A stretch of DNA of 64,000 bases from an archaeon (GCA_043799715.1 JAZDNM010000003.1:220986-284985), one strand, 5' to 3'; shown: positions 1 to 37,322, counted from the first letter of the stretch. Numbers and translations are program-made. Notes: generated by a model from the letters alone, not told the origin.

Positions 1-688
1 TTGTGTTGCCAGACAGATAATTGAAAGTAAGCAGGGGCAGGTCATTCTGGTCATCATCAGTGCAGTTTTCGCTGAAGTTGTAATAAAAAACAGTATCCTC
101 TGTTATGCTTCTTGTTGGAAGCTTGCCGCCGGGATTTTTTGCAAATATTGAAGGATTAGTATTGCTTATGAATGTATTCTCAGAGGCATTCACGCTGCCG
201 TAAGTGAAATTTGTGCAGTTTATTTCAAAGGGTATATTCCCCTTGTATTTGAAACTCCTGTTGTACTGGTACTGCCCTGTTGATGCTGAGTATGTCATGT
301 TATTCCAGGAAGTAAATGCCCCTGTAAGATTTTCATTAAATCTTATGCTGCAGTTTCCATCTTCCCTGGTTGATTCTATAATTTCCCCGGAAGTCTTGTT
401 TGTAAAATTGGCGTAAAAATATATGTTGTATGATGACATCCCCTTTGACGGGCACTGGTAATCAAGATTCGGATGCTCCTCCCTGCATGTGGGATAAGTA
501 TACATTGTTGTTGAGTCAGTTGTGTCCCAAATAGTGAGATTTGCCTTTGACTTGTTTGCAGAGGTTGTGGCAAACACAGAATTTGCTGATGACATAAGCA
601 GAAGCAGGAATATTGCTGCAGCAGCAAGAGGCACGATGAATGCCTCGCTCTGTTTCCCTCTGGCAAACTTTAGAATCTGGTTTTTCAT
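1..688 (-). CDS. Secreted surface protein, N-terminal part only; gene continues beyond the window start
   Basis: The minus-strand ATG at 686-688 opens MKNQILKFARGKQSEAFIVPLAAAAIFLLLLM, a signal peptide or TM helix. A Cys-containing sequence with many N-x-S/T sequons follows and runs off the window edge. Translated by eye, and absent from the ORF track because it is truncated. Confidence 0.45.
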   Translation of the reverse strand, partial: MKNQILKFARGKQSEAFIVPLAAAAIFLLLLMSSANSVFATTSANKSKANLTIWDTTDSTTMYTYPTCREEHPNLDYQCPSKGMSSYNIYFYANFTNKTSGEIIESTREDGNCSIRFNENLTGAFTSWNNMTYSASTGQYQYNRSFKYKGNIPFEINCTNFTYGSVNASENTFISNTNPSIFAKNPGGKLPTRSITEDTVFYYNFSENCTDDDQNDLPLLTFNYLSGNT

Positions 689-927
689 TTTCCTCTTTTT
701 GAAACTGAAGATTTTTTTGCTGATTTTTTTCTTGGCCTGTCCCAGTAAGGACTCTTGCATTTCGGGCATACCTTTGGCTCGCCCTCTGAGTTCTGTCTTG
801 GCAGCCATGCATGCCTGCATCTCTCGCATAAATAACCCAATATTTCTGTCTTGCCCATTTATCCTCTTTATTATTGGTAATATACCTTAGGTATATAAAT
901 ATTGCTATATTCTTATTAGTATAATAC

Positions 928-3375
928 TCACTCCCTTAGCCTGCCTATGCCTGAATACAGCTTCATTATTCTGTTGTAATACTTTCTCTTTTCCCTCTGA
1001 GGCAGCGCGTCATACAGGCTTCTTGTCTGGGTGTAATAATGCCTTGCAAGTGTTATGTCTTTTTCTGAAATTGCCTTCTTGGTTCTTTCAATGAAGCTGT
1101 TCAGCAGTGCTCTCTTCCTTTTTATGTCCTTTTCCTCCTCTTTTGATTTCAGCAGCTGCATTTCCTTTCTTGTTATTGCAACAGCAAGCGCAGCGAGTAT
1201 CAGGGTTATTGCAAGTATAAATTGGAACAAGCCGCAGTCATGCCTGCATGAAAAAATTTCAGCGAGCTCGCATTTTTCATCCCCGCATTTCGGAGCTCTC
1301 GGGTAACCAAGGGCGCATGCCTTGCACGGCCCTCCGCAGTCAATCCAGTCCTCCCCCTGATTCTGTATTCCGTCAGAACATGTAGTGCAGGGCTTGCACG
1401 GCCCTCCGCAGTCAGGCAGGACTTCACACATGCCATCGTGGCAGTTTAATATGCTGTCATAACAATCAGGAAGAAGCGTGAATGCGCAAACCTGCATTTC
1501 CTTTGGCTGTTTGCTTGTTGACCTGCAGTTTGCCTTGTCAAAACACGAGCGTGTCTGAAAGCCGCATTCCCCTGATAACAGGGAAGAGCAGTTTGAGATG
1601 ACTGTTTCATAGATATTTCCCAAAATTGCAATTGAGTCAGGAGTTGATGCATTCTGGCATAAGCTCCAGTCAGTGCATATCCACTGTTCTGTACAGCCTC
1701 CGCCGCCGCCTCCGCCTCCTCCTGAAACTGCTGTTGATACTATAGGGGCGGAATTCACAGTCACATTCCAGACAACAGTATCATTCAGCAGCCCGTCTGT
1801 TGCAAGCGCTGTCACATTGTATGCTCCTGCAGCGCCTGATGATGTTGAGAAGGTGTATGTTGAATTTGCGAGGATGAAAATATCATTTTTGTACCATAAT
1901 ATTGAAGGTGTTGTGCCATCCTCATCTTCAGCAGTTGCATTGAAAGTTATGCTCTCGCCCTCTGTTATGGACTGAATTCTATTTTCAGGATAATAGGATG
2001 TTATGTTTGGGGCATGGTTCTCAAGGGTTATTGTGAAAGAAACATTTTCGCATGCATTTTTTGGGGCGGCAGTCTGGTTGCAGAAGGAGATGTTTGCAGG
2101 AGCAGTAAATCCCAAGTCAGTAACGCATATCCTTACAGCATAAGTCCCGTTTATTGTCGCATTTGCAGAGAAATTTATGTTTCCTGTTGCAGCATTTATT
2201 GTGAAGAATGTTGTGCCGCTTGTGAATGTTGAATTGAACCTCAATGCGCCTGGAGTGTCCCCATCTTCCTCATCGCTGGCATAAGCAGTGTAATTAAGGC
2301 TGCTGTTGATATAAACTGTCTTTGCTCCTATGTGCTGCATTACAGGGGCGTCATTCGTGCTTATTATGTTCAGCGCAAAATCCTTGAAATCAGAGGCTTC
2401 CTCGTCAGAGACATAAACTCTTATAGAGTAGACATTTGCCTGCAGTGAATTTGGGGTAAAATCTATCTGCCCTGTGTTCTCGTTTATTACAAAAAGTGCT
2501 GTGTTGTCATAAAAATGCAGGGATTCTGTCCTGTACCTTACAGGGATAAGCAAGTCCTCGTCAGTTGCAGCTGCCTGATAAAGGAAATTGGCATCCTCGC
2601 ATGTCTGCATGTCCGGAATTATTCCAAGCAAAGGAGCGTCATTCACATTCAGCACAGTAAAATTAAACCCTGATGAGTTGGCGGCATTCCTTTCATCTCT
2701 GACTGTGATATTCATGGAATGAAATCCCACATCAGAGTCATTCGCAGAGAAATTAATCAGCCCATAGATATTAAAATCAAATGAGGGGAATATCGCAGAA
2801 GTTGAATTGTGAGTGAAGTTTATGCTCTCATTGTTCGGCTCAACAACAAAAGAGCTGAGGTTTACTGTAAAAAGAATATCCTCTGTCAGATTGAAGTTTC
2901 TCGTGTAATTTATCCAGTAAGGCACCCTGTTTGGGGGAAATATCTCAAGCGAGAATGTTGTTGAGCTGTTTGAGATATTTCCACAAAGCCCATGCGTTGC
3001 CCATATCAATACAGTGTAAGTTCCTGTCTCATTTTCCAGGGGAGTAAAGTTAATCAGCCCGCTTGTCCTCGATATAAAGAAACTTGTAAGATTTGCCTTG
3101 CCTGCTGCCTGGCTTGTCCTGCCATAATAGTATATTGGATTTCCTGAATCAGTTGCAATTACCTGATGTGTGAAATTGCTTCCTGCAATTGCTGTCTTGT
3201 CTGTTATTGATCCAAGAGTTGGCGGTCTGTCAATGCAAACTCCCACTCTTCCAAGGCTTGCCTTCCCGACTGTTAAGTTGCCGGTAATTTTCATCCACAC
3301 AAAAAGGTTGCCTGCAAGCGAGAGCAGCGCGAACATAACGATAATCAGGGCTATTTTATTGTTGTCTAACCTCAT
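928..3375 (-). CDS. Large membrane-anchored surface protein with cadherin-like repeats, a Cys-rich stalk and a cytoplasmic tail
   Basis: 815 aa with an N-terminal signal or TM segment. Three repeats carry an (N/H)(D)AP cadherin-like motif: VNDAPLL, TNDAPVM and ENHAPNIT. Sequons are dense. A Gly9 linker precedes a Cys-rich region with two DCGGPCK(P/A)C repeats, then a TM helix (FQFILAITLILAALAVAIT) and a ~100 aa K/E/R-rich tail. Confidence 0.6.
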   Translation of the reverse strand: MRLDNNKIALIIVMFALLSLAGNLFVWMKITGNLTVGKASLGRVGVCIDRPPTLGSITDKTAIAGSNFTHQVIATDSGNPIYYYGRTSQAAGKANLTSFFISRTSGLINFTPLENETGTYTVLIWATHGLCGNISNSSTTFSLEIFPPNRVPYWINYTRNFNLTEDILFTVNLSSFVVEPNNESINFTHNSTSAIFPSFDFNIYGLINFSANDSDVGFHSMNITVRDERNAANSSGFNFTVLNVNDAPLLGIIPDMQTCEDANFLYQAAATDEDLLIPVRYRTESLHFYDNTALFVINENTGQIDFTPNSLQANVYSIRVYVSDEEASDFKDFALNIISTNDAPVMQHIGAKTVYINSSLNYTAYASDEEDGDTPGALRFNSTFTSGTTFFTINAATGNINFSANATINGTYAVRICVTDLGFTAPANISFCNQTAAPKNACENVSFTITLENHAPNITSYYPENRIQSITEGESITFNATAEDEDGTTPSILWYKNDIFILANSTYTFSTSSGAAGAYNVTALATDGLLNDTVVWNVTVNSAPIVSTAVSGGGGGGGGGCTEQWICTDWSLCQNASTPDSIAILGNIYETVISNCSSLLSGECGFQTRSCFDKANCRSTSKQPKEMQVCAFTLLPDCYDSILNCHDGMCEVLPDCGGPCKPCTTCSDGIQNQGEDWIDCGGPCKACALGYPRAPKCGDEKCELAEIFSCRHDCGLFQFILAITLILAALAVAITRKEMQLLKSKEEEKDIKRKRALLNSFIERTKKAISEKDITLARHYYTQTRSLYDALPQREKRKYYNRIMKLYSGIGRLRE

Positions 3376-3471
3376 CTTTAAAATCAGGATTCCCCCTTTT
3401 CCGGAGCTGGTTTATGATATTACTTCTGTCTGGATATTTAAATAGTTTTCCCGAAAAAATTATACAGGAAT

Positions 3472-3939
3472 TCAGGCGCGCCTGAACACAAGAAATATCT
3501 TTCCGCTGTACTTTCCCATTGGAGCTGATGCAGGGACATAAACATTGAAATCTATCTGCCTTGTTTCTCCGGGAGATATTATAAAATTATTGTCATAAGA
3601 AAGAAAACTGCTTATGCTGCCGATTGCTTTTATCCCCACTGACATGTTAAACCTATCAAGGTTGCCCGCTGTCACAAACCTGTTGGCGCCGCCTTCTGGA
3701 ACAATCGCCCCAAAATTAATGACATCAATGCTTTCTTCTCCAAGGGCAAATGCAACATTGCCGCCAACCTCCAGCTTGGCAGTGAAGATTTTGACATAGC
3801 GGATATTATAGAGCATATAGGATATTTCAGCAGCCACAGCAGAGAATGCAATTATAATCAGAAAAAGGGCTGCTGTCCTTATCCTGCTGTTCCTCGCTTC
3901 TTTTTTTGGCTTATTCGCTTTTCTTTCTTTTTTTGGCAT
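3472..3939 (-). CDS. Small secreted or membrane protein; N-terminus MPKKERK plus a hydrophobic helix
   Basis: 155 aa. A basic N-terminus is followed by a TM or signal segment (AALFLIIIAFSAVAA). There is no recognisable catalytic motif. Confidence 0.4.
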   Translation of the reverse strand: MPKKERKANKPKKEARNSRIRTAALFLIIIAFSAVAAEISYMLYNIRYVKIFTAKLEVGGNVAFALGEESIDVINFGAIVPEGGANRFVTAGNLDRFNMSVGIKAIGSISSFLSYDNNFIISPGETRQIDFNVYVPASAPMGKYSGKIFLVFRRA

Positions 3940-5104
3940 TTTTCATTTCTGAATTTTTTAAAAGGATGAATACTATTATAATTATCAGCCCAACAAAAAT
4001 TGCAGTTGCTGATGTGTAAAACACAAGTCTTTTTATCTCCTCTGGATTGACAAGCATTTTTACTTTTATTTCCTGTGATGTGCTATTGCCTGAGAAGTAC
4101 AGCCTGATTTCCCCGTTGTAATACTGCGCTTTTTTCTCTGCAGCATCATAATAGGCGGTAAGGGTTGCTGTTTCCCACGGCTTAAGGGCAATTGCAGGGG
4201 ATTTCATGACTTCATTCTTCCCGTCATCAATTATTATTGAAGCGTAGACATTTTCAATAGCACTGTTCCACCTGCTCTGCACATCGACATTAAACTTGTT
4301 TATCTTGTTCCTTACAAGCTCTTTTGTGTAATTAACAACCTTCACTGCAAGCAATCCCACCCTAAATCTTGATGATGTGTTTATTTCATTTCCATCATAA
4401 TAAACTGTTGCAACTGCATAATATTCCCCTGACTCAAAATCCTTTGTGTTCAGTTCAGCTGAAAGTGTTATCCTGTCGTTTGAAGGAAGAGATTTCTCTG
4501 ATGTCTTAAGCGTTGTGATTTTTCTGTTGAATCCTGAGTCAGTAGGCCCAAACAAATCAATTACAGCACTGACGTTTGAGATATCTTTCTCTGTCCAGCT
4601 TCTTACTGCAACAGTCAGCGTTATAATATCCCCTGAATCAATATTCGGGACTTGAAAGTCATCTATCTTTGCATAAATGTCCGGGCTGAGAACCCTAATG
4701 CTGACAATTGAGCAGGCTTTTGTCCTTATTGTGACTCCTCCGCCTGCGCCTGACTGCAATTCTGTCACACAGAGAAAATTATCATGCAGTCCTGGCTCTG
4801 GCTTTTGCTCAGGAAGCTGCAATACTGCAGAAAAAGTTTTTGTCATTCCCGGCTGGACATCCTTGAACAATTCATTGCTCAATTTAAAATATTGCGAGAG
4901 TGTTCCATCAACAGTTATCTCGTAATCCATTGTGCTTGGCGTGTTCGCAACAAGGAAATATGAGAAAGATTCCTTCAAGCCGGGCTTGAAATCAATAATA
5001 TAATTAAGCTGCCCGCCATAATCCCCTATCCCAACTGCTGATACAGAAGATATTTGGAAGAGTGCTGCAAGCAGCAAAAGAACAAAAAAAAATTTATTTT
5101 TCAT
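3911..5104 (-). CDS. Secreted protein with a C-terminal TM anchor (hypothetical)
   Basis: Likely start is MKNKFFFVLLLLAALFQISSVSA at 5104, a signal peptide, within the longer ORF 3911..5173. The C-terminus has the TM helix FVGLIIIIVFILL and a basic tail KKRKKSE. Confidence 0.5.
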   Translation of the reverse strand: MKNKFFFVLLLLAALFQISSVSAVGIGDYGGQLNYIIDFKPGLKESFSYFLVANTPSTMDYEITVDGTLSQYFKLSNELFKDVQPGMTKTFSAVLQLPEQKPEPGLHDNFLCVTELQSGAGGGVTIRTKACSIVSIRVLSPDIYAKIDDFQVPNIDSGDIITLTVAVRSWTEKDISNVSAVIDLFGPTDSGFNRKITTLKTSEKSLPSNDRITLSAELNTKDFESGEYYAVATVYYDGNEINTSSRFRVGLLAVKVVNYTKELVRNKINKFNVDVQSRWNSAIENVYASIIIDDGKNEVMKSPAIALKPWETATLTAYYDAAEKKAQYYNGEIRLYFSGNSTSQEIKVKMLVNPEEIKRLVFYTSATAIFVGLIIIIVFILLKNSEMKNAKKRKKSE

Positions 5105-5188
5105 TTTCCTCTTTTTTTGCTTCAGCATAAAGGCAAATAAATACCTTTCGGTTTCTTTATAATAATATCCCAAAAAATAGCATTGAAC

Positions 5189-5863
5189 TCAAGAGCAGGC
5201 AGCATTCCTTCTTGTTGCAGTGAATGTCCATAATGCTGTCTTGTTTCCTGATGCTGAATCTTGGGGAACTCCAAGAACAACGCTTATGTTTAATGAGCGC
5301 TTTCCTGAAACGTATGACAAGTTCTTGCATACCTCATAGCCAGGAGCAGCTGTGCTTTCTATTGCTGTCAAGTTTGCAAGAGCGCCTCCGCAAACCCCTG
5401 AAGCTGCTGCTGAACAAGAGCTTGTTTCATTATTATAAGCATCATACTGCGCATAAGACCCTGTGCCTCCAAGCATTGTTGTTCCTGTTGAATCTGATGT
5501 GAAGTTTACATTAATATCAACTGTTCCTGTGTTTGCAATGCCTATATCTTTTGCGCTCCAGTCTGACTGCGATGTCCAGTTTGCAGGAACTGCCTGGCTG
5601 CTGTTTAATTCTGCTATTGTGTATCCTGCTGCAACATAGCCAACTCCGAATTCAACATTTGCAGGAGCGACATTAAGCTGCGCGACAACAGCGACAGTAA
5701 CATTAACCCTGCCTGTTGTGCCGAAGCCAGTTATTCCCTGCAGTGCAGGAATCATGTTGGCAAGATTTGAAACCTGCAGGACAGTAAGCAAAGCTCCGCC
5801 AAGAGAAATCACAATTGCGGCAGCGAGAAAAACTGCAAGGGTTTTGTTTGAAATTTCAGCCAT
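5189..5863 (-). CDS. Secreted or membrane protein with a Gly/Thr/Ser/Asn-rich ectodomain (hypothetical)
   Basis: 224 aa. The N-terminus has a hydrophobic segment LAVFLAAAIVISLGGALLTV. The rest is low complexity with several sequons. Confidence 0.45.
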   Translation of the reverse strand: MAEISNKTLAVFLAAAIVISLGGALLTVLQVSNLANMIPALQGITGFGTTGRVNVTVAVVAQLNVAPANVEFGVGYVAAGYTIAELNSSQAVPANWTSQSDWSAKDIGIANTGTVDINVNFTSDSTGTTMLGGTGSYAQYDAYNNETSSCSAAASGVCGGALANLTAIESTAAPGYEVCKNLSYVSGKRSLNISVVLGVPQDSASGNKTALWTFTATRRNAACS

Positions 5864-5954
5864 TTTTTCTTTTTAATTCCTCTTTACTGAATCTATGATG
5901 CTTGATTAAATAAATATTCCTATTTTATTCTTTGCTTTTAATATATCTTAGAGA

Positions 5955-6173
5955 TTATCCTGCTGGGATGCCTTCAAGTGTTTCTTCTGCAGGATTTCCT
6001 ATTCCCACTTTTATTTGTGCATAACTTACAGGAGTATCAGATGAATATTGCTGCTTTACAGATGTTATCATATCCAAAACATACCATGTGCTTATTACAG
6101 ATAGCAGTATTGTCAGAACAAGCAGAACAAGTATTGTAGTTCTCGCAACCTCTTGTTTTTCTTTTTTTGGCAT
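5955..6173 (-). CDS. Small membrane protein with MPKKEK N-terminus (hypothetical, possibly pilin-like)
   Basis: 72 aa. It shares the MPKKE(K/R) basic N-terminus plus a single TM helix with the ORF at 3472..3939. Confidence 0.35.
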   Translation of the reverse strand: MPKKEKQEVARTTILVLLVLTILLSVISTWYVLDMITSVKQQYSSDTPVSYAQIKVGIGNPAEETLEGIPAG

Positions 6174-6402
6174 TTTTCCTCTTTATTCTTAATTCTCGAG
6201 TGACAGCAAGTTTATAAACATTTCTTTTGTTTTGAAAAAATTCCAAATGTTTTGCTTGCTTCCAGTTTAATTTGGGAATTTTCTTTATAAATATTCCTAT
6301 TTTTAAAGAAAGTAGCTATAAAGAGGGGAGATTAACACGGAAAAGGTTTAAATAATTCTCTTTCATTGGGAATTAAATAAAAAGAGGCAGGCAATATCAA
6401 CT

Positions 6403-8685
6403 ATGGGTTTAAACGCAGCAGGGAAAAACTTTCTTTGCATTGCAATTCTGTTTGCATTTGTTTCAATAATACTTTCTTCATCAGCATTTGCAGTGTCAAC
6501 AAGAAGTTACTGTAAATATGCAGGCGGCTCAGGAAGCTATGCTTGTGATTCAGGCGCTGTAAGCGGAAACTCTGCAGCCTGCGCTGCTGCAAATGGGGCG
6601 CAATGCGCACAAGAAGGGGATGTTTTCTGCTACGCTGAATCAACATGCGAAGCAGGCACAACATTGAAGGGGCCTATATACACCTATAATGTGAACTGGG
6701 ATGCTGACTCTGCTGACTGCTCATGCAAGGCAGGAAGCAGCAGATGGGGCATAAGATTTATTTCAGGGACAACAGGACAGTGCTGCGGAGATGATGCAAG
6801 CGAATACTTTATTGGCGCAACAAATCAGAAAAATATTGACAAGATTGACACATGCTGCAAGTCAGATGCATATGTATTCAACGGAGTTTGCTGCGGAGAT
6901 GATGCAAGCGAATATTATGCAGGCTCAACAAACGGCAAGAGCTGCGACGGAACACAGGCATGCTGCAGCTCCCCGAGCTTGTATTCCCTGAACAGCAACT
7001 GTGTTTCATCATGCCCGGCTGTGACATCAGTGTACTGGACTGACCTTTCAGGAACAAGGATAAACTCCACAGAGCTAAATGATTATGTAATGCTTGTTGC
7101 AGAAACATCAGGCGCAGAAGGGATGCTGATTAACTTCACACTATGGGAAGAGGGAATAGTAAAATGCTATGAGGAAGTATCAAGAGCTTATTCAAATCAG
7201 GGCAAGGCATCTATTCTCTGGAAAGTAAAAGCCTGTGCCGACGGCTCAAACGACGGAAATAAATTCAAGGCATTTGTAAGTTCAACTCCCCTGATTTATC
7301 TTGAATCAGGGCTTCTTGCTGTCTCGCTTGTTGAAAGCGACAAGCTGCCTGTTGCTGTGATATCACAGCCAGCAGACGGGGGAATTTTCAATCTTGGGGA
7401 TAACATAAACTTTGTCTCAGGAAGCTATGATCCAGATGACCTGATAACCAGTGTAAAGTGGGATTTTGGAGACGGATACACAAGCATGCTCGCAAACACA
7501 ACGCATGCTTACTCTGCAGGCGGTCCTAAATTTGCAATACTGACAGTCCAGAACTCAAGGGGAAAGACAGCAGAAGTCAGAATAGGCATTCTTATAAATT
7601 CATCATCTGATGATCCCCCTCTGGCGATGATATCATCTCCAAGTTACGGGGAGAAATTTTCAGGTATGCTTATAACATTCAATGCAACAATGAGCAGGGA
7701 TGACAGAACTCCTTTCAACCAGCTGATATTCAAATGGGAATTTGACGACGGCAGTTCGCCTTATTCAGGCACTGGCATTTCAGGGGCATATTTCACAAAA
7801 CTGTTCTCAACAGCAGGGGAGCATCTTGTAAAATTAAGCGTTGATGACTCAGGACCTGGCTCGTTAACAGAAACATCATTTTCCATAAATGGCTGCCAGG
7901 TTCCGCTTGACGGCACTTCTGAGTTTGTTCCGTTCGGCAGCTGTTCTTCTATAAGCAAGCATTACTTCTGCGCCAACGAAACAACATATTATGATACAAT
8001 GGAAGAGCACTGCGAGGGCGCTGACAAGCAGGCGCTGACGTCAGACGACTGCTGCCCGAGAGGATTTTATTGCCCTGCTATTGGAGCTGCCTGCTCAGAG
8101 AGATCAAGCAACTGCGCAAGTTACAATATTTCTGCTGAATGTGAACAGTATGGGTGCATATGGCTGAACTCATCATGCGCAGAGCCGGCAGGAATGTCAT
8201 CCTGCTCTGATTATAAAAGTGAGGCTGCGTGCAATACTGATGTGCTCGGATTAGGAAGGTCAGTTGGAAGAGGGCTTGGCACCGACATCTGCGGAAGGAC
8301 ATTCGGAAGCTATCTCGTGAATGCATCAAGCTGCAAGTGCGGATGGGAACCTGCAGGAAGCCCGTCTGGAAACTGCAAATTTGGCTATTCTGTTGTGAGG
8401 ATTATTCCCGGGAATGTCACATTCATAACCTGCATGAAATCATTCACATTAAGCGACTGTGTTGCAGGAACCCAAAGCATGAACTGGACTGCATTAATAC
8501 TGCCTTCGGAACTTGCTGGAAACGAGACAGCAAGACAGCAATGCAGTGAAGGATACAAGGGAATAAAATGCGGAGTTTCAATCTCAAGGCTGCCATTTTT
8601 CGGAATTTTCAATTTTGTCCTTGCTGTAGCGGCAATTGCGCTCTACTATCTCTCTGCTGCAACAAGAAGGAACATCAAAAAATAA
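6403..8685 (+). CDS. Cys-rich surface protein with PKD-like domains and a C-terminal TM anchor
   Basis: Signal peptide MGLNAAGKNFLCIAILFAFVSIILSSSAFA. The CCGDDASEY module is duplicated. Two PKD-like signatures are present, WDFGDGYTS and FKWEFDDGSS. A C-terminal TM helix precedes an RRNIKK tail. RBS-like aaagagg lies upstream. Confidence 0.7.
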   Translation: MGLNAAGKNFLCIAILFAFVSIILSSSAFAVSTRSYCKYAGGSGSYACDSGAVSGNSAACAAANGAQCAQEGDVFCYAESTCEAGTTLKGPIYTYNVNWDADSADCSCKAGSSRWGIRFISGTTGQCCGDDASEYFIGATNQKNIDKIDTCCKSDAYVFNGVCCGDDASEYYAGSTNGKSCDGTQACCSSPSLYSLNSNCVSSCPAVTSVYWTDLSGTRINSTELNDYVMLVAETSGAEGMLINFTLWEEGIVKCYEEVSRAYSNQGKASILWKVKACADGSNDGNKFKAFVSSTPLIYLESGLLAVSLVESDKLPVAVISQPADGGIFNLGDNINFVSGSYDPDDLITSVKWDFGDGYTSMLANTTHAYSAGGPKFAILTVQNSRGKTAEVRIGILINSSSDDPPLAMISSPSYGEKFSGMLITFNATMSRDDRTPFNQLIFKWEFDDGSSPYSGTGISGAYFTKLFSTAGEHLVKLSVDDSGPGSLTETSFSINGCQVPLDGTSEFVPFGSCSSISKHYFCANETTYYDTMEEHCEGADKQALTSDDCCPRGFYCPAIGAACSERSSNCASYNISAECEQYGCIWLNSSCAEPAGMSSCSDYKSEAACNTDVLGLGRSVGRGLGTDICGRTFGSYLVNASSCKCGWEPAGSPSGNCKFGYSVVRIIPGNVTFITCMKSFTLSDCVAGTQSMNWTALILPSELAGNETARQQCSEGYKGIKCGVSISRLPFFGIFNFVLAVAAIALYYLSAATRRNIKK
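6781..6914 (+). repeat. Perfect 26-nt direct repeat (tgctgcggagatgatgcaagcgaata) at 6781-6806 and 6889-6914 inside the surface-protein gene
   Basis: Seen directly in the sequence. It encodes the duplicated CCGDDASEY peptide. Confidence 0.85.
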
Positions 8686-8749
8686 CGCTTTTTCTGGAAA
8701 AAGTTTATAAATTGTTTTATGCTTGTTGATTTGGCAAAAGAGGAATTAT

Positions 8750-11443
8750 ATGTCAAGCAAATCAGCATTTTTGGTTTTGATAACTGCTCTTGCAGCAATA
8801 ATGGCTGTATCCTATGCAATTGCAGAGGTTTCAGGCAGCGGAATGATTCTGACAAGAAGCATGTATGGAATAGGGGAGGCAATTGAAGGGAAAGTTAACA
8901 TTACGCTTTCAAGCGAGCCTGCTGACAGCGCTGTAACAGCTTTGGGAAAAAATACTTCTTTGCTGGATTTCCTGAAAAATAATAATCTTGAAAAAGACAA
9001 GGATTATTTATGCACTCCTGAAGACTGCAATGACTATTATGAGACTGTTGGAATCAGCACAAAGCAAAAATCCCTGCAGGCAGGCGACACACTAATTGGA
9101 AGCATAGCAGTAGGGAAGGACATTGAAATAAAGCAGAATGCATTGGAATTCAGCATAACAGGCAATGGAGGAGAACCAGTATGCGGCGTTGTCCCCCTGA
9201 AGCTGGACTTGCTTGCAGATAACTCAATTGACTGGGTTGATATGGAGCCCTCTGATTTGTGCGGAAGCCTGCAGCCAAGCAGCTGCTATGACGATACTTC
9301 AGCAAATCTTGAGCTTGACATTACAACAACCCCCTACTGCCAAAAAATTTACTTGCCTATTTCAGCGAGATTTAAAATTTCAGCGCTTGTAAAAAAGAAT
9401 ACTGGCGGAGGGGATTTGTCTGCTTTCATATATGACAAAAAAATAGGAGAAAGCACAGAATGCGACCTTCCTGAGCCGAATGTGACTTCTTACACTGAAA
9501 CAAACTGCATGGTGGACTTGAAGGTTTACGGCAACAATCAGGATTATTATGTATGCATCCAGGATAATTCTATTGACGGCGCATACACAATAAAGGCAGA
9601 GAAATCCTCCCCTATATGCGGATACAGCGACCTTCCTGGAAGATCAAGGAACGAAAGCGCTGATTTCGCGCTTCTTGTGCAGGGAACTGCAACAATTCCA
9701 TTAAACAGGACAGTAACATTCAATGAGCAGGAATTCAGCAAGTTTTCTTCTGTAGGCATAGGGGAATATCTTCAGGATTATCTCAATAAAAGGCATTCAA
9801 GCAATTGCCTTGACGGATGCATAATTCCTATAAGGATAATCTCATCAAACGCAGCAAACTTAAAAGATATGAGACTAAGCTACTGCGCCCAGGGATTATG
9901 CACAACAGAACAGAGCTTTTTCGGGCTTGAAAGAAAAAGTTCTATGATTGACATGAACATGACATCCCTTGATTTGTCTGCTGCAAATTTGTCTGCTGAG
10001 GGATATGGGCTCCAGACATTCTCCTTTTCAATAGGCGGAGTAAAGATAGGAGAAGAGGAAATTTCAATAGAAAGAGTTCCTGTAATAAAGAATCTTGTAG
10101 CGCTTAATGCAGAAGCAGGGGCTGCTGTTGATTTTTTTGCTGAGGCATATTCCCCAAAGAACAACACAATTGTAAGCTATGAATGGATATTTGGGGATGG
10201 CGGCACTGCAACAGCAGGGAGCTCTGTAACTCATGAATATAAAAATGTAGGGGAATTTAAGGTTACTGTAACAGCAGTTGATTCACAGGGATTGAAGGGA
10301 AGCAGAAGTTCAAAAATAACTGTGGGCTCACCGCAGGAGATAATTAATATGACTCTCTCTGGCAAGAGGATAATATTCAACGAGCTTAAAAATGAGATTG
10401 ACAAGGCAGGATGGTACAAGGGGCTTATTGAAAAGCAGCTTGGCACAGCAGAAATAAGCACTTTGCTCAGTGATTATGAAAACCAGTTCAGATTCGCAAC
10501 AACCCCGTCGGAATATATAGAGCTTATGCCCAAAGTCAGCAAGTTCATAATACCCCAGTCAATTTATGACTCTGAATTTGTTACAGAGATTCCAATTACT
10601 GTTGATGTTGATTCAATAAAGCCGGAGCTTATTGAAGGGCTTAATGGCGGCGTGTATGACTCCTCAAGAGCATCTGAGACAAGAAACGCAATATGGGCAT
10701 GGCAGCACAAGAATGTTGCCATGACAGCGACTTCAAGAGTGATGGAATCCATTGATGAGAATGAGAATAGGGCAGAGCTTGCAACAATTATTACACTTAG
10801 AATAAAGCCATTGACCCAGTTGGAAGAGAGCTATCTTGTTATTCTTGCGCCTTATGAAAGCGCGACATTTGCATCAGATTACAATCAGAGAGATGTTGCA
10901 GGGAATATAGGATTTGTGCTTGACAGCCTGAGCTCTGATTATATAATTTCATTTGCTGTTACAGGGCGCGTTGATATAAGCAGCCTTGAGATGTTTATGT
11001 CCCCTTATCTGGCAAATCTCGAAATTGAGGAGAATATTGTGTGCAACAGCAACAGGGTATGCGAAAAAAATCTCGGGGAAAACTGGAAGACATGCAGAGA
11101 TGACTGCAAGCCAATAGGACTCGCTTTAATCCTGCTTATTTTTGCCCTAGCTGCAATGGCTGCAGCATATATTTTCCTGCAAAAATGGTACAAAACAAAA
11201 TACGAGAAGTATCTGTTCAAGGAGCAGCATGATTTAAGCAATATGGTGTCGTTTGCAAGCAACTCACTGAGAAGAGGCGAGAGCGAGAATGATGTAAAGG
11301 GTAAGCTCAAACAGGCAGGATGGAATCTTGAGCAGATATACTATATCTTCAGGAAAATAAAAGGCGAAAAGGTTGGGATGCCTGAAGTGAAAATTAAATG
11401 GCTTGACATGGTAAAAAACCTGCTCAAGCACCGAAAGGTTTAA
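8750..11443 (+). CDS. Large surface protein with a PKD-like domain, C-terminal TM anchor and ~100 aa cytoplasmic tail
   Basis: ATG at 8750 with aagaggaa upstream; the track ORF starts at TTG 8723. Signal peptide MSSKSAFLVLITALAAIMAVSYAIA. PKD signature YEWIFGDGGTATAGSSVTHEY. A Cys motif CNSNRVCEKNLGENWKTCRDDC precedes the TM helix IGLALILLIFALAAMAAAYIFL. Confidence 0.7.
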   Translation: MSSKSAFLVLITALAAIMAVSYAIAEVSGSGMILTRSMYGIGEAIEGKVNITLSSEPADSAVTALGKNTSLLDFLKNNNLEKDKDYLCTPEDCNDYYETVGISTKQKSLQAGDTLIGSIAVGKDIEIKQNALEFSITGNGGEPVCGVVPLKLDLLADNSIDWVDMEPSDLCGSLQPSSCYDDTSANLELDITTTPYCQKIYLPISARFKISALVKKNTGGGDLSAFIYDKKIGESTECDLPEPNVTSYTETNCMVDLKVYGNNQDYYVCIQDNSIDGAYTIKAEKSSPICGYSDLPGRSRNESADFALLVQGTATIPLNRTVTFNEQEFSKFSSVGIGEYLQDYLNKRHSSNCLDGCIIPIRIISSNAANLKDMRLSYCAQGLCTTEQSFFGLERKSSMIDMNMTSLDLSAANLSAEGYGLQTFSFSIGGVKIGEEEISIERVPVIKNLVALNAEAGAAVDFFAEAYSPKNNTIVSYEWIFGDGGTATAGSSVTHEYKNVGEFKVTVTAVDSQGLKGSRSSKITVGSPQEIINMTLSGKRIIFNELKNEIDKAGWYKGLIEKQLGTAEISTLLSDYENQFRFATTPSEYIELMPKVSKFIIPQSIYDSEFVTEIPITVDVDSIKPELIEGLNGGVYDSSRASETRNAIWAWQHKNVAMTATSRVMESIDENENRAELATIITLRIKPLTQLEESYLVILAPYESATFASDYNQRDVAGNIGFVLDSLSSDYIISFAVTGRVDISSLEMFMSPYLANLEIEENIVCNSNRVCEKNLGENWKTCRDDCKPIGLALILLIFALAAMAAAYIFLQKWYKTKYEKYLFKEQHDLSNMVSFASNSLRRGESENDVKGKLKQAGWNLEQIYYIFRKIKGEKVGMPEVKIKWLDMVKNLLKHRKV

Positions 11444-11498: not shown

Positions 11499-12146
11499 AT
11501 GCCTATTCTAATTATCCCTGATTTTTTCAAGAGGATATTTCTAACTTTGTTCAAGCAGAAAAAGCATGTGAAGCTGGGCTTGTACGGTCCGCCAAATGGC
11601 GGCAAGACAACACTCGCAAACAGGATATGCAAGGACTGGACAGGAGAAGAGCTTGGAAGCGTATCAAAAATACCCCATGAAACAAGGGAAGTCCAGATAA
11701 AAGAAAAGGTTGATTTAAAATTCAAGGGCAAGGAGCTCACATTCAAGCTTATTGATACTCCGGGAATAGCAACAAAAATAGATTATGAGGATTTCTTAAA
11801 ATTTGGCATGAAAAAGAATGATGCCAAGAAAAGGGCGAAAGAGGCGACGCAGGGAGTTATAGAATCAATAAAATGGCTTGATGACATGGATTGCGTTGTT
11901 ATAGTCCTTGATGCAACAATCAACCCTTATTCCCAAGTTAACATCACAATAATCGGCAATCTTGCAGCAAGGAAAATTCCAGTGCTTATAGTTGCGAACA
12001 AGATTGACTTGAACAAGGCAGATATGAAAAGAATAGAGTCTGCATTTCCACAGTATGAACTTGTAGGCCTTTCAGCAAAATTCGGGAAAAATATGGAGGA
12101 ATTTTATGAAAGCTTATTCAGGCTTGCAAAAAAGAGAAAGGGCTGA
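11499..12146 (+). CDS. Small GTP-binding protein (Arf/SR-beta-like GTPase)
   Basis: Walker A GPPNGGKTT, DTPG (G3) and NKID (G4). 215 aa. Confidence 0.8.
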   Translation: MPILIIPDFFKRIFLTLFKQKKHVKLGLYGPPNGGKTTLANRICKDWTGEELGSVSKIPHETREVQIKEKVDLKFKGKELTFKLIDTPGIATKIDYEDFLKFGMKKNDAKKRAKEATQGVIESIKWLDDMDCVVIVLDATINPYSQVNITIIGNLAARKIPVLIVANKIDLNKADMKRIESAFPQYELVGLSAKFGKNMEEFYESLFRLAKKRKG

Positions 12147-18030: not shown

Positions 18031-18125
18031 TGCTCCCGACGGGACTCGAACCCGTGTCGCAGGCGTTCTCTTTACTTTTTATGTAGACGAGAGGCCCGCA
18101 TACTTGGCCGCTATACTACGGGAGC
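18031..18125 (-). tRNA. tRNA-Glu (anticodon CUC) with a 22-nt intron at the canonical 37/38 position
   Basis: The reverse complement folds as acceptor GCTCCCG/CGGGAGC, T arm ACGGG-TTCGAGT-CCCGT, anticodon stem CGGGC/GCCTG and loop CTCTCG|C. The intron lies at + strand 18066..18087, and its GAGA can pair with the anticodon-region TCTC in a BHB-like arrangement. Folded by hand. Confidence 0.65.
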
Positions 18126-18128
18126 ATA

Positions 18129-18227
18129 TAGCCCCGCACGGATTCGAACCGTGGTCGCAAGGTTTCTTAAGCATTTTATGAATCTGCTTCCAGAGCCTCG
18201 CATACTGGACCGCTATACTACGGGGCT
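18129..18227 (-). tRNA. tRNA-Gln (anticodon CUG) with a 26-nt intron at 37/38
   Basis: The reverse complement folds as acceptor AGCCCCG/CGGGGCT with A1:U72 and A73, T arm CACGG-TTCGAAT-CCGTG, and anticodon stem CGAGG/CCTTG. Compensatory changes relative to tRNA-Glu support the stem. The intron lies at + strand 18164..18189. Folded by hand. Confidence 0.6.
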
Positions 18228-18600: not shown

Positions 18601-18673
18601 GCCTCAGTAGCTCAGTTGGTAGAGCACGACATTGGTAATGTCGGGGTCGAGAGTTCAATCCTCTCCTGAGGCT
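18601..18673 (+). tRNA. tRNA-Thr (anticodon GGU), no intron
   Basis: Acceptor GCCTCAG/CTGAGGC, D arm GCTC-AGTTGGTA-GAGC, anticodon stem CGACA/TGTCG with loop TTGGTAA, T arm GAGAG-TTCAATC-CTCTC. Confidence 0.85.
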
Positions 18674-33666: not shown

Positions 33667-34614
33667 ATGAAGCATAACCTCAAGATAACAGCATTGCTGC
33701 TTGCAATGTTTCTTTTTACGCAGCTTCTCGGGCTTGCTGTTATAAACGCATATTCCCCAAGAATTGAGAAGGTATTTGTCAATGGAACTGTCCAGAATGT
33801 AACTGTCCAGACAGAAATTCCTTATGGAATGCAGCCGCCTGAAATGCAGCCATGGGAGGCATTGCAGTCAATAGGGGTAAGCATAATTCTGGCGGTGATT
33901 ATCATGTTCTTCCTTATGAAGAAAAGAGCTGATTTATTACTGAGAGTCTGGCTTTTCTCTGTTGTTGTTATTTCCATAGCCATAGCATTTAATGCTGGCT
34001 TCATGAAGCTGAGTTTCCTTTCAGGAACGCAGATGCTCGCTTTTGTCCTTGCTTTTCCTCTTGCATTTTACAAGATATTCCAGAGAAACATAATAATCCA
34101 CAATGCAACTGAGCTCCTAATTTATCCGGGAATTGCTGTTATCTTTGTGCCGATACTCAATGTGTGGGCAGCAGCAGCGCTTCTTGCCCTTATAGCGGTA
34201 TATGATGTTTATGCTGTATGGCATTCAGGGTTCATGCAGAAGCTTGCAAAATTCCAGATGAATCAGCTCAAGGTTTTCACTGGATTTTTTGTGCCTTATG
34301 TTGCGAAAAAAGACAGGATAATAATAGAAAGAATGAAGTCCCTGCCCCAGAAAGAAAAGATGCAAAAGTTCAAAAAACTCAAGATAAAAGTAAATCTTGC
34401 GATTCTTGGGGGAGGGGACATAACCTTTCCTTTAATATTCGCAGGGGTTATATTGAGAACAAGCGGGTTATTGCATGCAATAATTGTGCCCCTTGCCGCA
34501 ACCCTCGCTCTGCTTCTTTTGTTTGCTGTTGCGAAGAAAGGCAAGTTTTATCCTGCAATGCTTTTTTTAAGCCCGGCATGCATTCTCGCTTGGCTGATTG
34601 GGATGCTGTTTTAG
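33667..34614 (+). CDS. Presenilin/signal-peptide-peptidase-like intramembrane aspartyl protease homologue
   Basis: Polytopic membrane protein. YD motif (IAVYDVYAVW), GxGD motif (LAILGGGDITFP) and a PAL-like YPAML near the C-terminus. Confidence 0.6.
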   Translation: MKHNLKITALLLAMFLFTQLLGLAVINAYSPRIEKVFVNGTVQNVTVQTEIPYGMQPPEMQPWEALQSIGVSIILAVIIMFFLMKKRADLLLRVWLFSVVVISIAIAFNAGFMKLSFLSGTQMLAFVLAFPLAFYKIFQRNIIIHNATELLIYPGIAVIFVPILNVWAAAALLALIAVYDVYAVWHSGFMQKLAKFQMNQLKVFTGFFVPYVAKKDRIIIERMKSLPQKEKMQKFKKLKIKVNLAILGGGDITFPLIFAGVILRTSGLLHAIIVPLAATLALLLLFAVAKKGKFYPAMLFLSPACILAWLIGMLF

Positions 34615-35089: not shown

Positions 35090-35246
35090 TTTCCTCTTTT
35101 GATGCAATTCCAGAGTGGCTTCAACTTTAAAAATATTTATATTCACAGGAAAGAATGTTTCACTTGTTATTCCCTTAGGCAACTTATTTAAACTTTTAAT
35201 TATAGATAATCCAATGCCACAAAAGCTGTCTGCAGGAAGAAATGCC

Positions 35247-37322
35247 ATGGCATATGAACTGCTGGTTCTGGTTGGGGGAGTGCTGGTTCTGCTTCTTTTT
35301 TTAATGTATTTCAAAACAGAGACAACAGGGCATGTTGTTGTTTCCAAGATTTCAGGGCAGTACTATGCCTTGCAGGTTATAAGCGGAATAATTGATTTGG
35401 ATATTGAGGAGGGGGAATTCCTGCCTGCGCAGTCTGTTCTGAAGGCAGGGGTAGCGGGTAATGAGAACAGTTTTACATTGGAGCAATTGATGATATCATC
35501 AGGGGCAGGCATTGAGAAGAAACAGGGAAATTTTTCTGTTAATGATGTTGATATAACAGGGCAGGGTGAGGGCTATGGGATTGCAGGCGGGGCGACAATT
35601 TCATTAAATTTGTCTGACTTCAATCTGCAAGTTGAAGAGGCAGGCAAGTATAATCTGATTATATCTCTTGAATACAACGAAATAGTGCTCTTAACTGAAC
35701 AAAAGAAGATAAATGTCAAGTCATGTTCTCCTGATTGGAAACAGCACAACACAAGCTGCATGGAAAATGATGCCATAACAGGTTATTACAGGGACAGAAA
35801 AGAATGCTATGAGAAAACAGGAAAAGATTCCTATCTTCTTGAAAAGCCTGAGAATATCACTTTTTCATGCGATTACTGCACGCCGAACTGGAAGCCAAAA
35901 AATGAGTCGTGCACTGAAAATGAGACAAGAACTGTTTATTATGCTGACTCAAGAAAATGCTATGAGAAAACAGGGCTGATGTCTGACTTGGCTGGAATGC
36001 CTGAAAATGAAACAGCAGATTGTGATTTTTGCAGGCAGAATATAACCCAATATGCCACTTCCTGCGATGTTAACGACAGCTTCACTGTTTATTACAGGGA
36101 TGCAAAAAGATGCTATGAGAAAACAGGGCTGGAAGAGGATAAAGTGCCAGAAAATGAGACAATGGCTTGCGATTACTGCACGCCGAACTGGGTTGCTGTG
36201 AATACATCATGCTTGTCTGGAGATAAAATTGTTGAATGGTACAATGATTCTGAAGGATGCTTTGGCAAAACTCACTTAAGCTCTGAACTGCTTGGAAGGG
36301 CTGATAACAGAACATATTATTTTGCATGCTCTTATTACAATAATAATCTTATAGGGGATATTTCTGACATCAGCACAAGCATAGAAAATTTGAGCATGAC
36401 TCTTTCAAGCTCTGCTGACCTGACTCAGCCGCTCAGGGACTTGCTTCCTGTTTCAATAAAGGAAAACGGCTCTGAACTGCTTGAGTTCAATTTTAATTTT
36501 TCTGCAGGAGAGCTTAATCTTGCGGATTTGACAATACAAAAGCAGGATGAGAATGCAACTCTGGGATTTATTGCTGTCAACGGCATTGATATTGCCGCGC
36601 AGAATGAAACAAAAACAGTATGGGTTGACAGGATTGGCAGCGGGGCAGGCATATGCATAAAAGATGAGGAGAATGCGAATGCTATGGATATTACTGCGGC
36701 ATGCAGCGCAACAAATGAGATTTTTGTAAAATGCCCTGGCTCTTTTGCAGGATATGCCTGCGAGTTTGATGCTGTGATGAAAAAATACAAAGTTTCTGAC
36801 TTGAGGCATTCAGCTGTTATTGAGCAGGAAGCGTTCTGCGGGGATTCTGCCTGCAATGGCGCTGAATCATGCAGTTCCTGTTCAACTGACTGCGGCGAAT
36901 GCCCTGCAGCTGCTGCTGAAACATCTGCGCAGTCCTCTGGCGGGGGGGGCAGCGGAGGAAGCTGCACGCCAAAATGGGAGTGCTCTGAATGGAATGTTTG
37001 TTCAAATGGAAAGCAGACAAGAACATGCACAAATCTGAAATCTTACTGCCCTGTGAGCAAGCCTGCAGAGCAGCAGGATTGTGAAATGCCGTCTGTTCCT
37101 GAAACAGAAAATAAAGAGATAAAAGAAACTGCCAGTAATGAAACAGTATCAAAACAATATGAAAAGATTCAGCCAAAACTCGGAATGCTTGGTGGAGTAA
37201 TAGGAGTTGTCACTGCAATGCCTTTTGAATTTAGGATAGGAATAGCCGCGACACTTCTTTCATTTGTGCTTGTGCTGATAACGCTAATAGCTTTCCTTGC
37301 AATTATCAGAAAAAAGAAATAA
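35247..37322 (+). CDS. Surface protein with four tandem Cys modules, a Gly-rich linker, Cys/Trp module and C-terminal TM anchor
   Basis: Start MAYELLVLVGGVLVLLLFLMYF. Four repeats of the form Y(Y/R)xDxK(E/K/R)CYEKTG ... PENxT ... CD(Y/F)C. The C-terminus reads SSGGGGSGGSCTPKWECSEWNVCSNGKQTRTC, then the TM helix AATLLSFVLVLITLIAFLAII and RKKK. Confidence 0.65.
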   Translation: MAYELLVLVGGVLVLLLFLMYFKTETTGHVVVSKISGQYYALQVISGIIDLDIEEGEFLPAQSVLKAGVAGNENSFTLEQLMISSGAGIEKKQGNFSVNDVDITGQGEGYGIAGGATISLNLSDFNLQVEEAGKYNLIISLEYNEIVLLTEQKKINVKSCSPDWKQHNTSCMENDAITGYYRDRKECYEKTGKDSYLLEKPENITFSCDYCTPNWKPKNESCTENETRTVYYADSRKCYEKTGLMSDLAGMPENETADCDFCRQNITQYATSCDVNDSFTVYYRDAKRCYEKTGLEEDKVPENETMACDYCTPNWVAVNTSCLSGDKIVEWYNDSEGCFGKTHLSSELLGRADNRTYYFACSYYNNNLIGDISDISTSIENLSMTLSSSADLTQPLRDLLPVSIKENGSELLEFNFNFSAGELNLADLTIQKQDENATLGFIAVNGIDIAAQNETKTVWVDRIGSGAGICIKDEENANAMDITAACSATNEIFVKCPGSFAGYACEFDAVMKKYKVSDLRHSAVIEQEAFCGDSACNGAESCSSCSTDCGECPAAAAETSAQSSGGGGSGGSCTPKWECSEWNVCSNGKQTRTCTNLKSYCPVSKPAEQQDCEMPSVPETENKEIKETASNETVSKQYEKIQPKLGMLGGVIGVVTAMPFEFRIGIAATLLSFVLVLITLIAFLAIIRKKK
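35740..36260 (+). repeat. Intragenic tandem repeats (atgctatgagaaaacagg x3; tgcgattactgcacgccgaactgg x2)
   Basis: Direct DNA repeats seen at ~35806, 35959 and 36110 and at 35871 and 36170. They encode the CYEKTG and CDYCTPNW modules. Confidence 0.8.

Follow-up and report, generated by a model that had tools for sequence, protein, structure and literature searches.

The first 11,443 nucleotides (nt) of a 64,000-nt stretch of archaeal DNA (GCA_043799715.1 JAZDNM010000003.1:220986-284985; "the window" denotes this whole stretch) encode a block of membrane-anchored, predicted glycosylated surface proteins. The core of this block is not a variable island but an operon kept across distant lineages, whose protein families are uncharacterised; this core operon probably builds an adhesion or envelope structure. 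The locus studied, window positions 1-11443, contains nine open reading frames (ORFs), eight of them large (g0-g7) and one a small Zn-ribbon ORF (Table 1). Judged by its gene order in related loci, the minus-strand set is a conserved DPANN operon found across at least two phyla. Its predicted products are three N-anchored proteins (g5, g4 and g2), the C-anchored g3, two cadherin-like type I glycoproteins (g1 and g0) and one cytoplasmic protein.

All eight large products carried an N-terminal hydrophobic segment, and a second, C-terminal one was present in g1, g3, g6 and g7. Outside the locus, such a segment was present in just 11 or so of 54 window ORFs, so that the eight-gene run of anchored or secreted products is far beyond chance. 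A previous reading of the window from its sequence alone (the sequence-only reading) had described eight consecutive genes for signal-peptide or transmembrane (TM)-anchored proteins here; we recovered the ORFs and their hydrophobic segments at the positions it gave, but its inventory had missed the Zn-ribbon ORF. The minus-strand genes all run in one direction and are closely packed or overlapping (g3/g2 and Zn-ribbon/g0).

Conservation of the gene order across DPANN lineages

Related loci (n=26; designated by L and a number) were found through g3 homologues and alignment and were then scanned with the window proteins by phmmer. Loci of Pacearchaeota, Woesearchaeota, Nanoarchaeia and Aenigmarchaeota shared the same gene order. 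A small gene like g5 comes first and one or two like g4 come second; g3 and g2 follow, then a gene for a small cytoplasmic protein, and finally a g1-like gene (760-1000 amino acids, aa) and a g0-like gene (~1400 aa). In the window the minus-strand operon runs g5-g4-g3-g2-g1-(Zn-ribbon)-g0. Across phyla, the order of five to six genes was kept at 25-35% protein identity, which would be surprising if the genes were not functionally coupled. Between related lineages the locus proteins were 41-71% identical to their orthologues, the giant proteins being among the better conserved; hypervariability is thus not a feature of the locus. One closer relative (L028) had the entire layout, with g6 and g7 in place.

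In the Pacearchaeota- and Woesearchaeota-type loci a MoxR AAA+ gene followed the cassette, either at once or after one gene on the opposite strand, and where the sequence ran on, a DUF58 gene and then a BatA-type VWA gene came after MoxR. In an Aenigmarchaeota locus a VWA gene adjoined the g1 homologue. The flanks in relatives also included RNA polymerase genes.

Three observations were made on the related loci themselves. Contigs titled 'uncultured Methanosarcinales archaeon' (L005, L007, L008, L010, L011, L017 and L026) carried the cassette. These loci were near-identical to Woesearchaeota loci, and the g5 N-terminal sequence of L010 was that of the Woesearchaeota locus L012, with the same gene order; the label is probably wrong and the bins are DPANN, unless the cassette is also present outside DPANN. 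In the Nanoarchaeia locus L023, a classical archaeal class III signal-peptide pilin (MSKRGQAALEFLMTYGWAILIV...) was encoded at 7392-7844, directly upstream of the g5 homologue, the sole type IV pilin-like gene found adjoining the cassette. Nanoarchaeia and Aenigmarchaeota loci also had a second module upstream of the cassette, consisting of an N-anchored protein of ~160-170 aa followed by a g3 paralogue (400-460 aa).

A helix and strand shared by g4 and g5

At E<=1e-3 the g4 family took in 777 cluster representatives (clustering at 50% identity), almost all of them 200-235 aa long, and every named member was a 'hypothetical protein' of Woese-, Pace- or Nanoarchaeota without Pfam domains. Its members begin with a hydrophobic helix (MxEISNKTLAxLLxxAIVxSLGGT), which is followed by a linker, a GxVNxTI strand and an immunoglobulin (Ig)-like sandwich. 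The linker was variable except for an invariant Gly, G46, within a TG motif (invariant in 83 sequences). In the sandwich, a pair of Cys was invariant, and the motifs FGxG and ENxGN were present. The consensus fraction was 0.59-0.67 in the N-terminal 29 residues, compared with 0.37 in the ectodomain. The median number of N-x-S/T sequons in a member was 10, those at N6, N54 and N181 being conserved, and heavy N-glycosylation is a predicted trait of the family.

AlphaFold2 models were made for g4 and g3 as monomers. The g4 model, with a predicted local distance difference test score (pLDDT) of 86, showed a 32-residue helix, a low-confidence linker and a beta-sandwich, and the GxVNxTI strand was placed confidently but unpaired. 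When this model was compared with the Protein Data Bank (PDB) by Foldseek, the best matches were all donor-strand-exchange fibre subunits, with TLP-1a/b first (E 1e-3, probability 0.99) and further matches to FimG/F/A/I, CsuE, PapE, Caf1 and Pyrodictium CanA. The top 50 matches included no archaeal type IV pilin or archaellin structure. Searches of PDB sequences with g4 by phmmer and by profile returned nothing relevant, and the 83 members searched against Pfam gave no fimbrial, TasA or Peptidase_M73 matches. For g2-g5 as a whole, no family was found in Pfam, NCBIfam or PDB sequence searches.

Alignment of the g5 and g4 families with hhalign gave a probability of 97% and an E value of 1.6e-11 over 59 columns, corresponding to g4 residues 1-60. 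Both families have the TM helix and, after it, a Gx(V/I)xhx(I/V) strand; most g5 members had another strand of this kind, and the globular domain was absent. The g5 gene was the first gene of the cassette in 12 or more loci. Some loci carried tandem g4 paralogues, an arrangement reminiscent of major and minor pilins.

A different pair had been picked out by the sequence-only reading, which took g2 and g5 as possibly pilin-like from their common MPKKE(K/R)-TM start. This start is indeed present in both proteins, with 25 of 27 nt identical around the start codon, but it was not kept in orthologues and is thus lineage-specific, and the real homology is that of g5 to residues 1-60 of g4. The start-codon regions of the operon genes were alike in DNA (681-711, 3918-3969, 5097-5127 and 6152-6190), GAAAAATGCCAAAAAAAGAAA being common to the g2 and g5 starts and AGAGGAAAATGAAAAA to the g0 and g3 starts. 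This suggests a common Shine-Dalgarno-like context (GAGGAAAA-ATG), and the MPKKE likeness of g2 and g5 can be put down to the DNA context that the start regions share. With neither a class III signal nor a hidden Markov model (HMM) match, and with a lineage-specific MPKKE start, g2 and g5 were ruled out as classical type IV pilins.

Elsewhere in the window, the ORF at 33667-34614 (+) encodes a signal-peptide peptidase of the presenilin type (PF06550, E 2e-10), which has six or more TM segments. In principle, an intramembrane protease of this kind could act on signal-anchor helices like those found in g4 and g5.

Ig-type domains of g3 and g2

The g3 protein starts with a cleavable signal peptide (cut between VSA and VGIG). 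Three Ig-like domains follow in tandem, and the C-terminus consists of a TM helix and then a basic tail. Its model (pLDDT 87) gave generic tandem-Ig matches in Foldseek, to HYDIN/ASH/PapD-like arrays, the CfaB pilin trimer, RbmA and A2M. Homologues of g3 were 26-65% identical and all unannotated. The g2 protein combined an N-terminal TM anchor with one Ig-like sandwich of the HYDIN/VesB/NEW3 type; it matched NPCBM_assoc weakly, and its orthologues had weak matches to HYDIN_VesB Ig and PG_0320-like_C. It occupied the same position in 20 or more loci and was weakly related to g4 in profile comparison.

The large proteins g1 and g0 and the embedded Zn-ribbon ORF

The N-terminus of g1 is a signal or anchor, and its cadherin-like Ig repeats come next. 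Beyond them lie, in turn, a poly-Gly linker and Cys-rich DCGGPC modules; a TM helix then leads to a helical tail in the cytoplasm. Big_9 was matched over 3 stretches (E 9e-12, 46.1 bits; gathering cut-off 23.6) and Ig_SIBA-E_2nd at E 2e-7 (31.5 bits; cut-off 27.8), which bears out the cadherin-like repeats read from the sequence; the classical (eukaryotic) Cadherin family was unmatched in Pfam. Linker motifs (NDAP twice, NHAP and NSAP) stood at residues 245, 341, 453 and 541, ~100 aa apart. The protein has 28 Cys, with DCGGPC(K)xC modules repeated, and the motif of its cytoplasmic tail (…A..Y.r.r.lY..LP..eKrk.Y..I..LY) was conserved out to Aenigmarchaeota. Orthologues of g1 were in the same position in most loci.

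The part of g0 within the window starts with a signal peptide and shared 71% identity with the N-terminal part of a protein of 1429 aa in L027. The 229 residues matched no Pfam or NCBIfam model, whereas the orthologues (~1400-1430 aa) carried Big_9, Cadherin_4/5 and He_PIG repeats. By homology, this part of g0 is the N-terminus of a secreted, cadherin-like giant that reaches ~1430 aa in relatives.

Between these two genes, the Zn-ribbon ORF encodes CxxC...CxxC and a basic tail, and it matched Zn_ribbon_8 at E 1.2e-4, under the Pfam cut-off. It was kept at the same position in the Pacearchaeota-type loci L001/L004 and L027, and Woesearchaeota-type loci had instead an unrelated 187-aa cytoplasmic protein between g2 and g1. 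For either protein, a role as regulator or as partner of the g1 tail is conceivable.

The sequence-only reading had seen no glycosyltransferase or sortase gene, and neither was found in 1-11443. There were also no matches to NCBIfam CTERM models (archaeosortase/sortase sorting) among the locus proteins, whose C-termini are a plain TM segment and then a basic tail. Anchoring by archaeosortase or sortase (PGF-CTERM, PEF-CTERM, LPXTG) was ruled out.

The plus-strand proteins g6 and g7

The PKD-like signatures reported earlier for two proteins proved to be genuine domains scoring above the Pfam gathering cut-offs (family models PF18911 and PF00801). In g6, PKD_4 was matched in two copies (E 7e-20, 71.2 bits; cut-off 27), and in g7 as one domain (E 1.6e-14, 54.1 bits), with WDFGDG at g6 residue 353 and WIFGDGG at g7 residue 488. 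The PKD regions matched ColH/ColG PKD structures at E 2e-13, and the surface-layer (S-layer) structure 1L0Q, a Methanosarcina surface-layer protein, was matched solely by the PKD part of g6. The duplicated CCGDDASEY module is likewise real, with two copies in g6 that lie 36 aa apart and share 86% DNA identity.

The g6 protein has a C-terminal TM segment, and its counterpart in L028, 754 aa long and 66% identical, is encoded at the matching divergent position. The g7 protein has a signal peptide, a C-terminal TM segment and a cytoplasmic tail of ~95 aa, and its N-terminus was 48% identical to the product of the gene after the g6 homologue in L028. A phmmer scan of the more distant cassette loci found neither g6 nor g7. 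The two are lineage-specific, PKD-containing and Cys-rich type I membrane proteins that probably act as further adhesins.

Composition and surroundings of the locus

Sequon excess was tested against 2000 composition-preserving shuffles per protein. It was clear in g1 (n=35, z=8), g0 (n=13, z=3.8) and g4 (n=10, z=4.0) and marginal in g6 (n=12, z=2.0), and g2, g3, g5 and g7 had no excess. The proposal that the surface proteins here carry very many sequons thus held for the first three, hardly for g6 and not for the rest.

The GC content of the locus was 0.41-0.44, compared with ~0.40 for the window, and no integrase, tRNA or repeat boundaries of the locus were found. BLAST among the surface proteins of the window gave no pairwise matches, by which paralogy among them was ruled out. 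The closest named homologues came from Candidatus Pacearchaeota. Neighbouring genes were archaeal housekeeping genes (OapA-like GTPase, OapB, OapC, CCA-adding enzyme, PheRS, LysRS, FttA and Rad50). From these relatives and neighbours, together with putative tRNA introns, the source is identified by its gene content as a small-genome, Pacearchaeota-like DPANN archaeon, in line with the small-genome archaeon that had been supposed.

Comparable sequon- and Cys-rich surface proteins were encoded at two further places in the window, which counts against the island reading. One, at 35115-37322 (+), is 735 aa long, has a TM segment near either terminus, contains 20 sequons and 32 Cys, and was unmatched in Pfam. 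A Cys repeat of ~45 aa occurs in it four times in tandem (C[DS][YF]C.[PQ]NW..N.SC..N[DE]..T.YY.D...CYEKTG); after these come a GGGGSGG linker and a module rich in Cys that resembles the one in g1. The protein had no BLAST similarity to g1, g6 or g7. The other, at 50667-52109 (-), is a 480-aa lamin-tail protein (LTD, E 3e-16) with TM segments at both ends and 23 sequons; at 4.8 per 100 aa, its sequon density was the highest among complete ORFs of the window, the partial g0 being higher.

Table 1. Coordinates of the features of the locus (window positions) and of features in related loci
Feature	Position	Strand	Description
g0	2-688	-	N-terminal 229 aa; gene exits the window at its left end
Zn-ribbon ORF	685-858	-	57 aa; small cytoplasmic protein, between g1 and g0; overlaps g0 by 4 nt
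g1	928-3375	-	815 aa; type I membrane glycoprotein (predicted)
g2	3472-3939	-	155 aa; 29-nt overlap with g3
g3	3911-5104	-	397 aa by NCBI start; longest ORF extends to 5173
g4	5189-5863	-	224 aa; sequon-rich, N-anchored
g5	5955-6173	-	72 aa; N-anchored, without globular domain
g5/g6 divergent spacer	6174-6402	none	229 nt; A+T-rich, several TATA-like boxes (by reading the sequence); presumed bidirectional promoter region
g6	6403-8685	+	760 aa; Cys-rich (44 Cys) type I membrane protein
g7	8723-11443	+	906 aa; type I membrane protein; likely true start is the ATG at 8750
MoxR AAA+ / DUF58 / BatA-type VWA genes	L001 18912-21182; L003 16276-17151; also L005, L008, L012, L020		After the g0-like gene in Pacearchaeota and Woesearchaeota loci; VWA gene next to the g1 homologue in an Aenigmarchaeota locus
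Small protein of the second module	L019 5786-6301; L020 9508-10002; L021 9433-9948; L022 1853-2329; L024 9508-9990		Motif P.F.W.G...L.IDDN.EF.SP; unannotated

A possible surface assembly and its alternatives

We tentatively favour the view that the cassette products form one adhesion or envelope-associated complex, which we regard as possible though somewhat short of probable. This surface-assembly reading draws on the synteny and close packing of the genes, the Big_9, Cadherin_5 and He_PIG repeats, the fold matches of g4, the homology of g5 and g4, the tandem g4 copies, the invariant G46, the sequons and the g1 tail. From Ig-fold proteins the minus-strand set would build a scaffold or short fibre, N-glycosylated and anchored in the membrane, that displays the two giant cadherin-like adhesins g1 and g0 for cell-cell or substrate attachment. 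The proteins would be inserted into the membrane through N-terminal helices (g4, g5 and g2) or C-terminal helices (g3, g1 and g0). Through beta-strand addition or donor-strand complementation, the GxVNxTI strand of g4 and g5 would then pair with an adjacent Ig domain at its edge or groove, and g5, a helix and strand alone, would serve as membrane anchor or terminator. Gly46 in the TG motif of g4 may be a processing site that frees the strand, by analogy with the membrane-tethered precursors of Bacteroides type V pili. The g1 tail, the small cytoplasmic protein and, in relatives, MoxR-DUF58-VWA may act in assembly or in coupling to the cell interior.

Several points weigh against this surface assembly. 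The fold matches of g4 are weak (E 1e-3 to 0.3, template-modelling score 0.3-0.5, 9-16% identity), and a generic Ig sandwich could account for them. The post-helix strand of g2 aligns within its own domain, so the corresponding strand of g4 may be merely strand A in cis. The cassette encodes no chaperone, usher, ATPase or protease; the flank at which MoxR-DUF58-VWA would be expected in this genome lies beyond window position 1, their adjacency being seen in relatives alone; and the function of the cassette proteins is a matter of inference throughout. Moreover, Ig folds, many sequons and a C-terminal TM segment are generic in DPANN surface or S-layer candidates (10.1101/2023.10.27.564410). A more specific version, which we consider unlikely, is a DPANN-specific surface fibre or stalk whose TM-tethered subunits would be cut at TG, polymerised by donor strands, anchored by g5 and matured with the aid of MoxR/VWA, carrying g1 and g0 for host attachment in Woese-, Pace-, Nano- and Aenigmarchaeota.

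The main rival is an S-layer or envelope locus, in which g1 and g0 would form a glycosylated lattice or canopy and g3, g4 and g2 the membrane stalk or anchor, like SlaA/SlaB. Deep conservation of the cassette in genome-reduced lineages is what a core envelope function would show, and multiple Ig folds, many sequons and a C-terminal TM segment were the criteria for S-layer and anchor candidates of Nanobdella aerobiophila, the DPANN S-layer protein being so far undetermined (10.1101/2023.10.27.564410). The sequence-only reading had named conservation of the locus in synteny with ordinary S-layer genes as something that would speak against it; the locus did prove conserved and syntenic, though not with any known S-layer genes. 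Pfam and NCBIfam output for the eight proteins contained no S-layer family, g1, g6 and g7 matching Ig-, cadherin- and PKD-type models alone; a long conserved cytoplasmic tail such as that of g1 is unusual for a lattice protein; and six or more anchored components together with a strand-only g5 exceed the needs of a two-component S-layer. We therefore rate the S-layer role as rather unlikely, while giving it more weight than any other alternative. The view that g4, g5 and g2 are divergent type IV pilin-like proteins, whose helices form a filament core built by a PilB/PilC-type machine encoded elsewhere, gains from the 'lollipop' shape of the g4 model (an N-terminal hydrophobic helix of ~30 residues and then a beta domain), from the better conservation of the helix that the large g4 and the small g5 have in common, from K-A directly before the hydrophobic stretch in g5 orthologues of Woesearchaeota-type loci, and from the pilin gene next to the g5 homologue in L023. 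Yet pilin N-terminal HMMs gave no match other than T2SSI (E 0.09) in 1 of 83 g4 members. The residue before the helix is K in g4 (SNK before TLA) and T in g5 and g2 of the window (R-T) instead of G/A, and the leader is not basic. With the top 50 Foldseek matches of g4 also free of archaeal pilins and archaellins, and no PilB/ArlI ATPase, PilC/ArlJ platform or A24 prepilin peptidase in the 26 loci or the 29 window ORFs scanned, this view appears very improbable.

The genes could also be neighbours by chance, encoding independent surface proteins that make up the lineage's store of adhesins or receptors and form no joint machine. The further sequon- and Cys-rich surface proteins scattered in the window, the lack of pairwise BLAST similarity among its surface proteins and the place of g6 and g7 outside the wider conserved cassette would all fit. 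Such independence is nevertheless quite improbable when five to six genes keep their order across phyla at 25-35% identity, when coding regions overlap (g3/g2 and Zn-ribbon/g0) and when g5 is homologous to the N-terminus of g4. As for a horizontally acquired, fast-varying host-attachment island, adhesin-type domains are clustered here and DPANN are episymbionts (10.1101/2023.10.27.564410), but we give it almost no credence. The GC content is close to that of the window, integrase, tRNA or repeat boundaries are lacking, orthologues are 41-71% identical with the large 'adhesins' among the better conserved, and the flanks are housekeeping genes (OapABC and CCA-adding enzyme; RNA polymerase in relatives). 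A mobile or variable island was thus ruled out by GC content, conservation and synteny; of the attachment locus once proposed, the adhesion role remains plausible and the variability does not.

Comparison with known systems

The thread cluster of Sulfolobus acidocaldarius (Saci_0404-0409, with subunit Saci_0406 and putative cap Saci_0405; PMC9715654) resembles the cassette in that its subunit, like g4, is a small N-glycosylated beta-sandwich with an N-terminal strand, that a second co-encoded protein has the same donor part and a different acceptor part, and that neither cluster has a chaperone, usher or ATPase. The heavy N-glycosylation of archaeal threads and other archaeal filaments also parallels g4 (PMC9715654). 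However, threads have no sequence relationship to g4, and no thread structure was in the top 50 fold matches of g4. Thread subunits have an ordinary cleaved signal peptide, whereas g4 has a long, highly conserved hydrophobic helix, and the g4 cassette adds g3, g2 and two cadherin-like giants.

An Ig-like sandwich with an N-terminal extension, as in the g4 model, is also found in the TLP-1a/b pond-water fibrils (PDB 9ikj/9ikk; PMC11494351) and in FimA/F/G, PapE, CsuE and Caf1. These are bacterial, and the similarity of g4 to TLP-1 and the chaperone-usher pilins is weak (9-16% identity). The cassette lacks both the PapD-like chaperone and the outer-membrane usher on which chaperone-usher systems depend. 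No sequence homology of g4 to the TasA/camelysin, fimbrial, Saci_0406 or CanA families was found by phmmer, profile or Pfam searches.

In the type V pili of Bacteroides (FimA/Mfa1), membrane-tethered precursors polymerise by strand exchange after cleavage; the anchor subunit FimB/Mfa2 ends the fibre, and the VWA-containing Mfa5 is associated with it. The subunits are lipoproteins that donate a C-terminal strand. The analogy with the cassette is conceptual alone, since the tether of the cassette proteins is a TM helix and their cleavage is hypothesised.

The predicted S-layer and anchor proteins of the DPANN archaeon Nanobdella aerobiophila (MJ1_0160 and MJ1_0707 among others; 10.1101/2023.10.27.564410) share with the cassette products multiple Ig folds, many sequons, a C-terminal TM segment and the lack of a recognisable family. 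The likeness is one of description: the Nanobdella proteins are single large proteins picked by expression level, unlike a multi-gene cassette with small N-anchored Ig proteins. Bona fide PKD/Big_9 domains, as in adhesins and S-layer proteins (ColH PKD; 1L0Q), are also present in g6, g7 and g1, but the Cys-rich modules (CCGDDASEY and DCGGPC), TM helices and cytoplasmic tails of g1, g6 and g7 had no family match. Operons of the MoxR AAA+/DUF58/BatA-type VWA kind lie directly downstream of the cassette in relatives and outside the window here.

PKD and Big_9 domains are ordinary, and glycosylated, Ig-rich clusters are to be expected in DPANN. The literature searched held no description of the conserved g5-g4-g3-g2 cassette, nor of a link from it to cadherin-like giants or to MoxR/DUF58/VWA.

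Neighbouring features of the window

Directly after g7 came an OapA-like GTPase (11499-12146), OapB (PF09846; 12246-12638) and OapC (PF09845; 12995-13411). The Pfam name 'origin-associated proteins' raises the question of a replication origin near the locus. At 18031-18227 (-), Rfam called two adjacent tRNA genes of 95 and 99 nt, lengths that suggest introns. ARAGORN reported one of these two tRNAs alone, as tRNA-??? with a four-base 'gaag' anticodon. A third tRNA gene, a normal tRNA-Thr(GGT), lay at 18601-18673.

Implications for DPANN surface biology

A life attached to hosts is presumed for DPANN archaea and is led by all those cultivated so far, yet no attachment structure or S-layer protein of theirs has been determined at the molecular level (10.1101/2023.10.27.564410). 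An operon conserved from Pacearchaeota to Aenigmarchaeota is thus a concrete and testable candidate for a DPANN attachment or envelope apparatus. It joins four unannotated protein families (g2-g5) to two cadherin-like giants and makes g4, g5, g3 and g2 defined structural targets. Should strand complementation prove wrong, the 'island' would still be ordinary, conserved surface-protein content and not a variable locus; should it prove true, the few archaeal filaments outside type IV (threads, bundling pili, cannulae and tafi) would be joined by a new variant that is tethered to the membrane.

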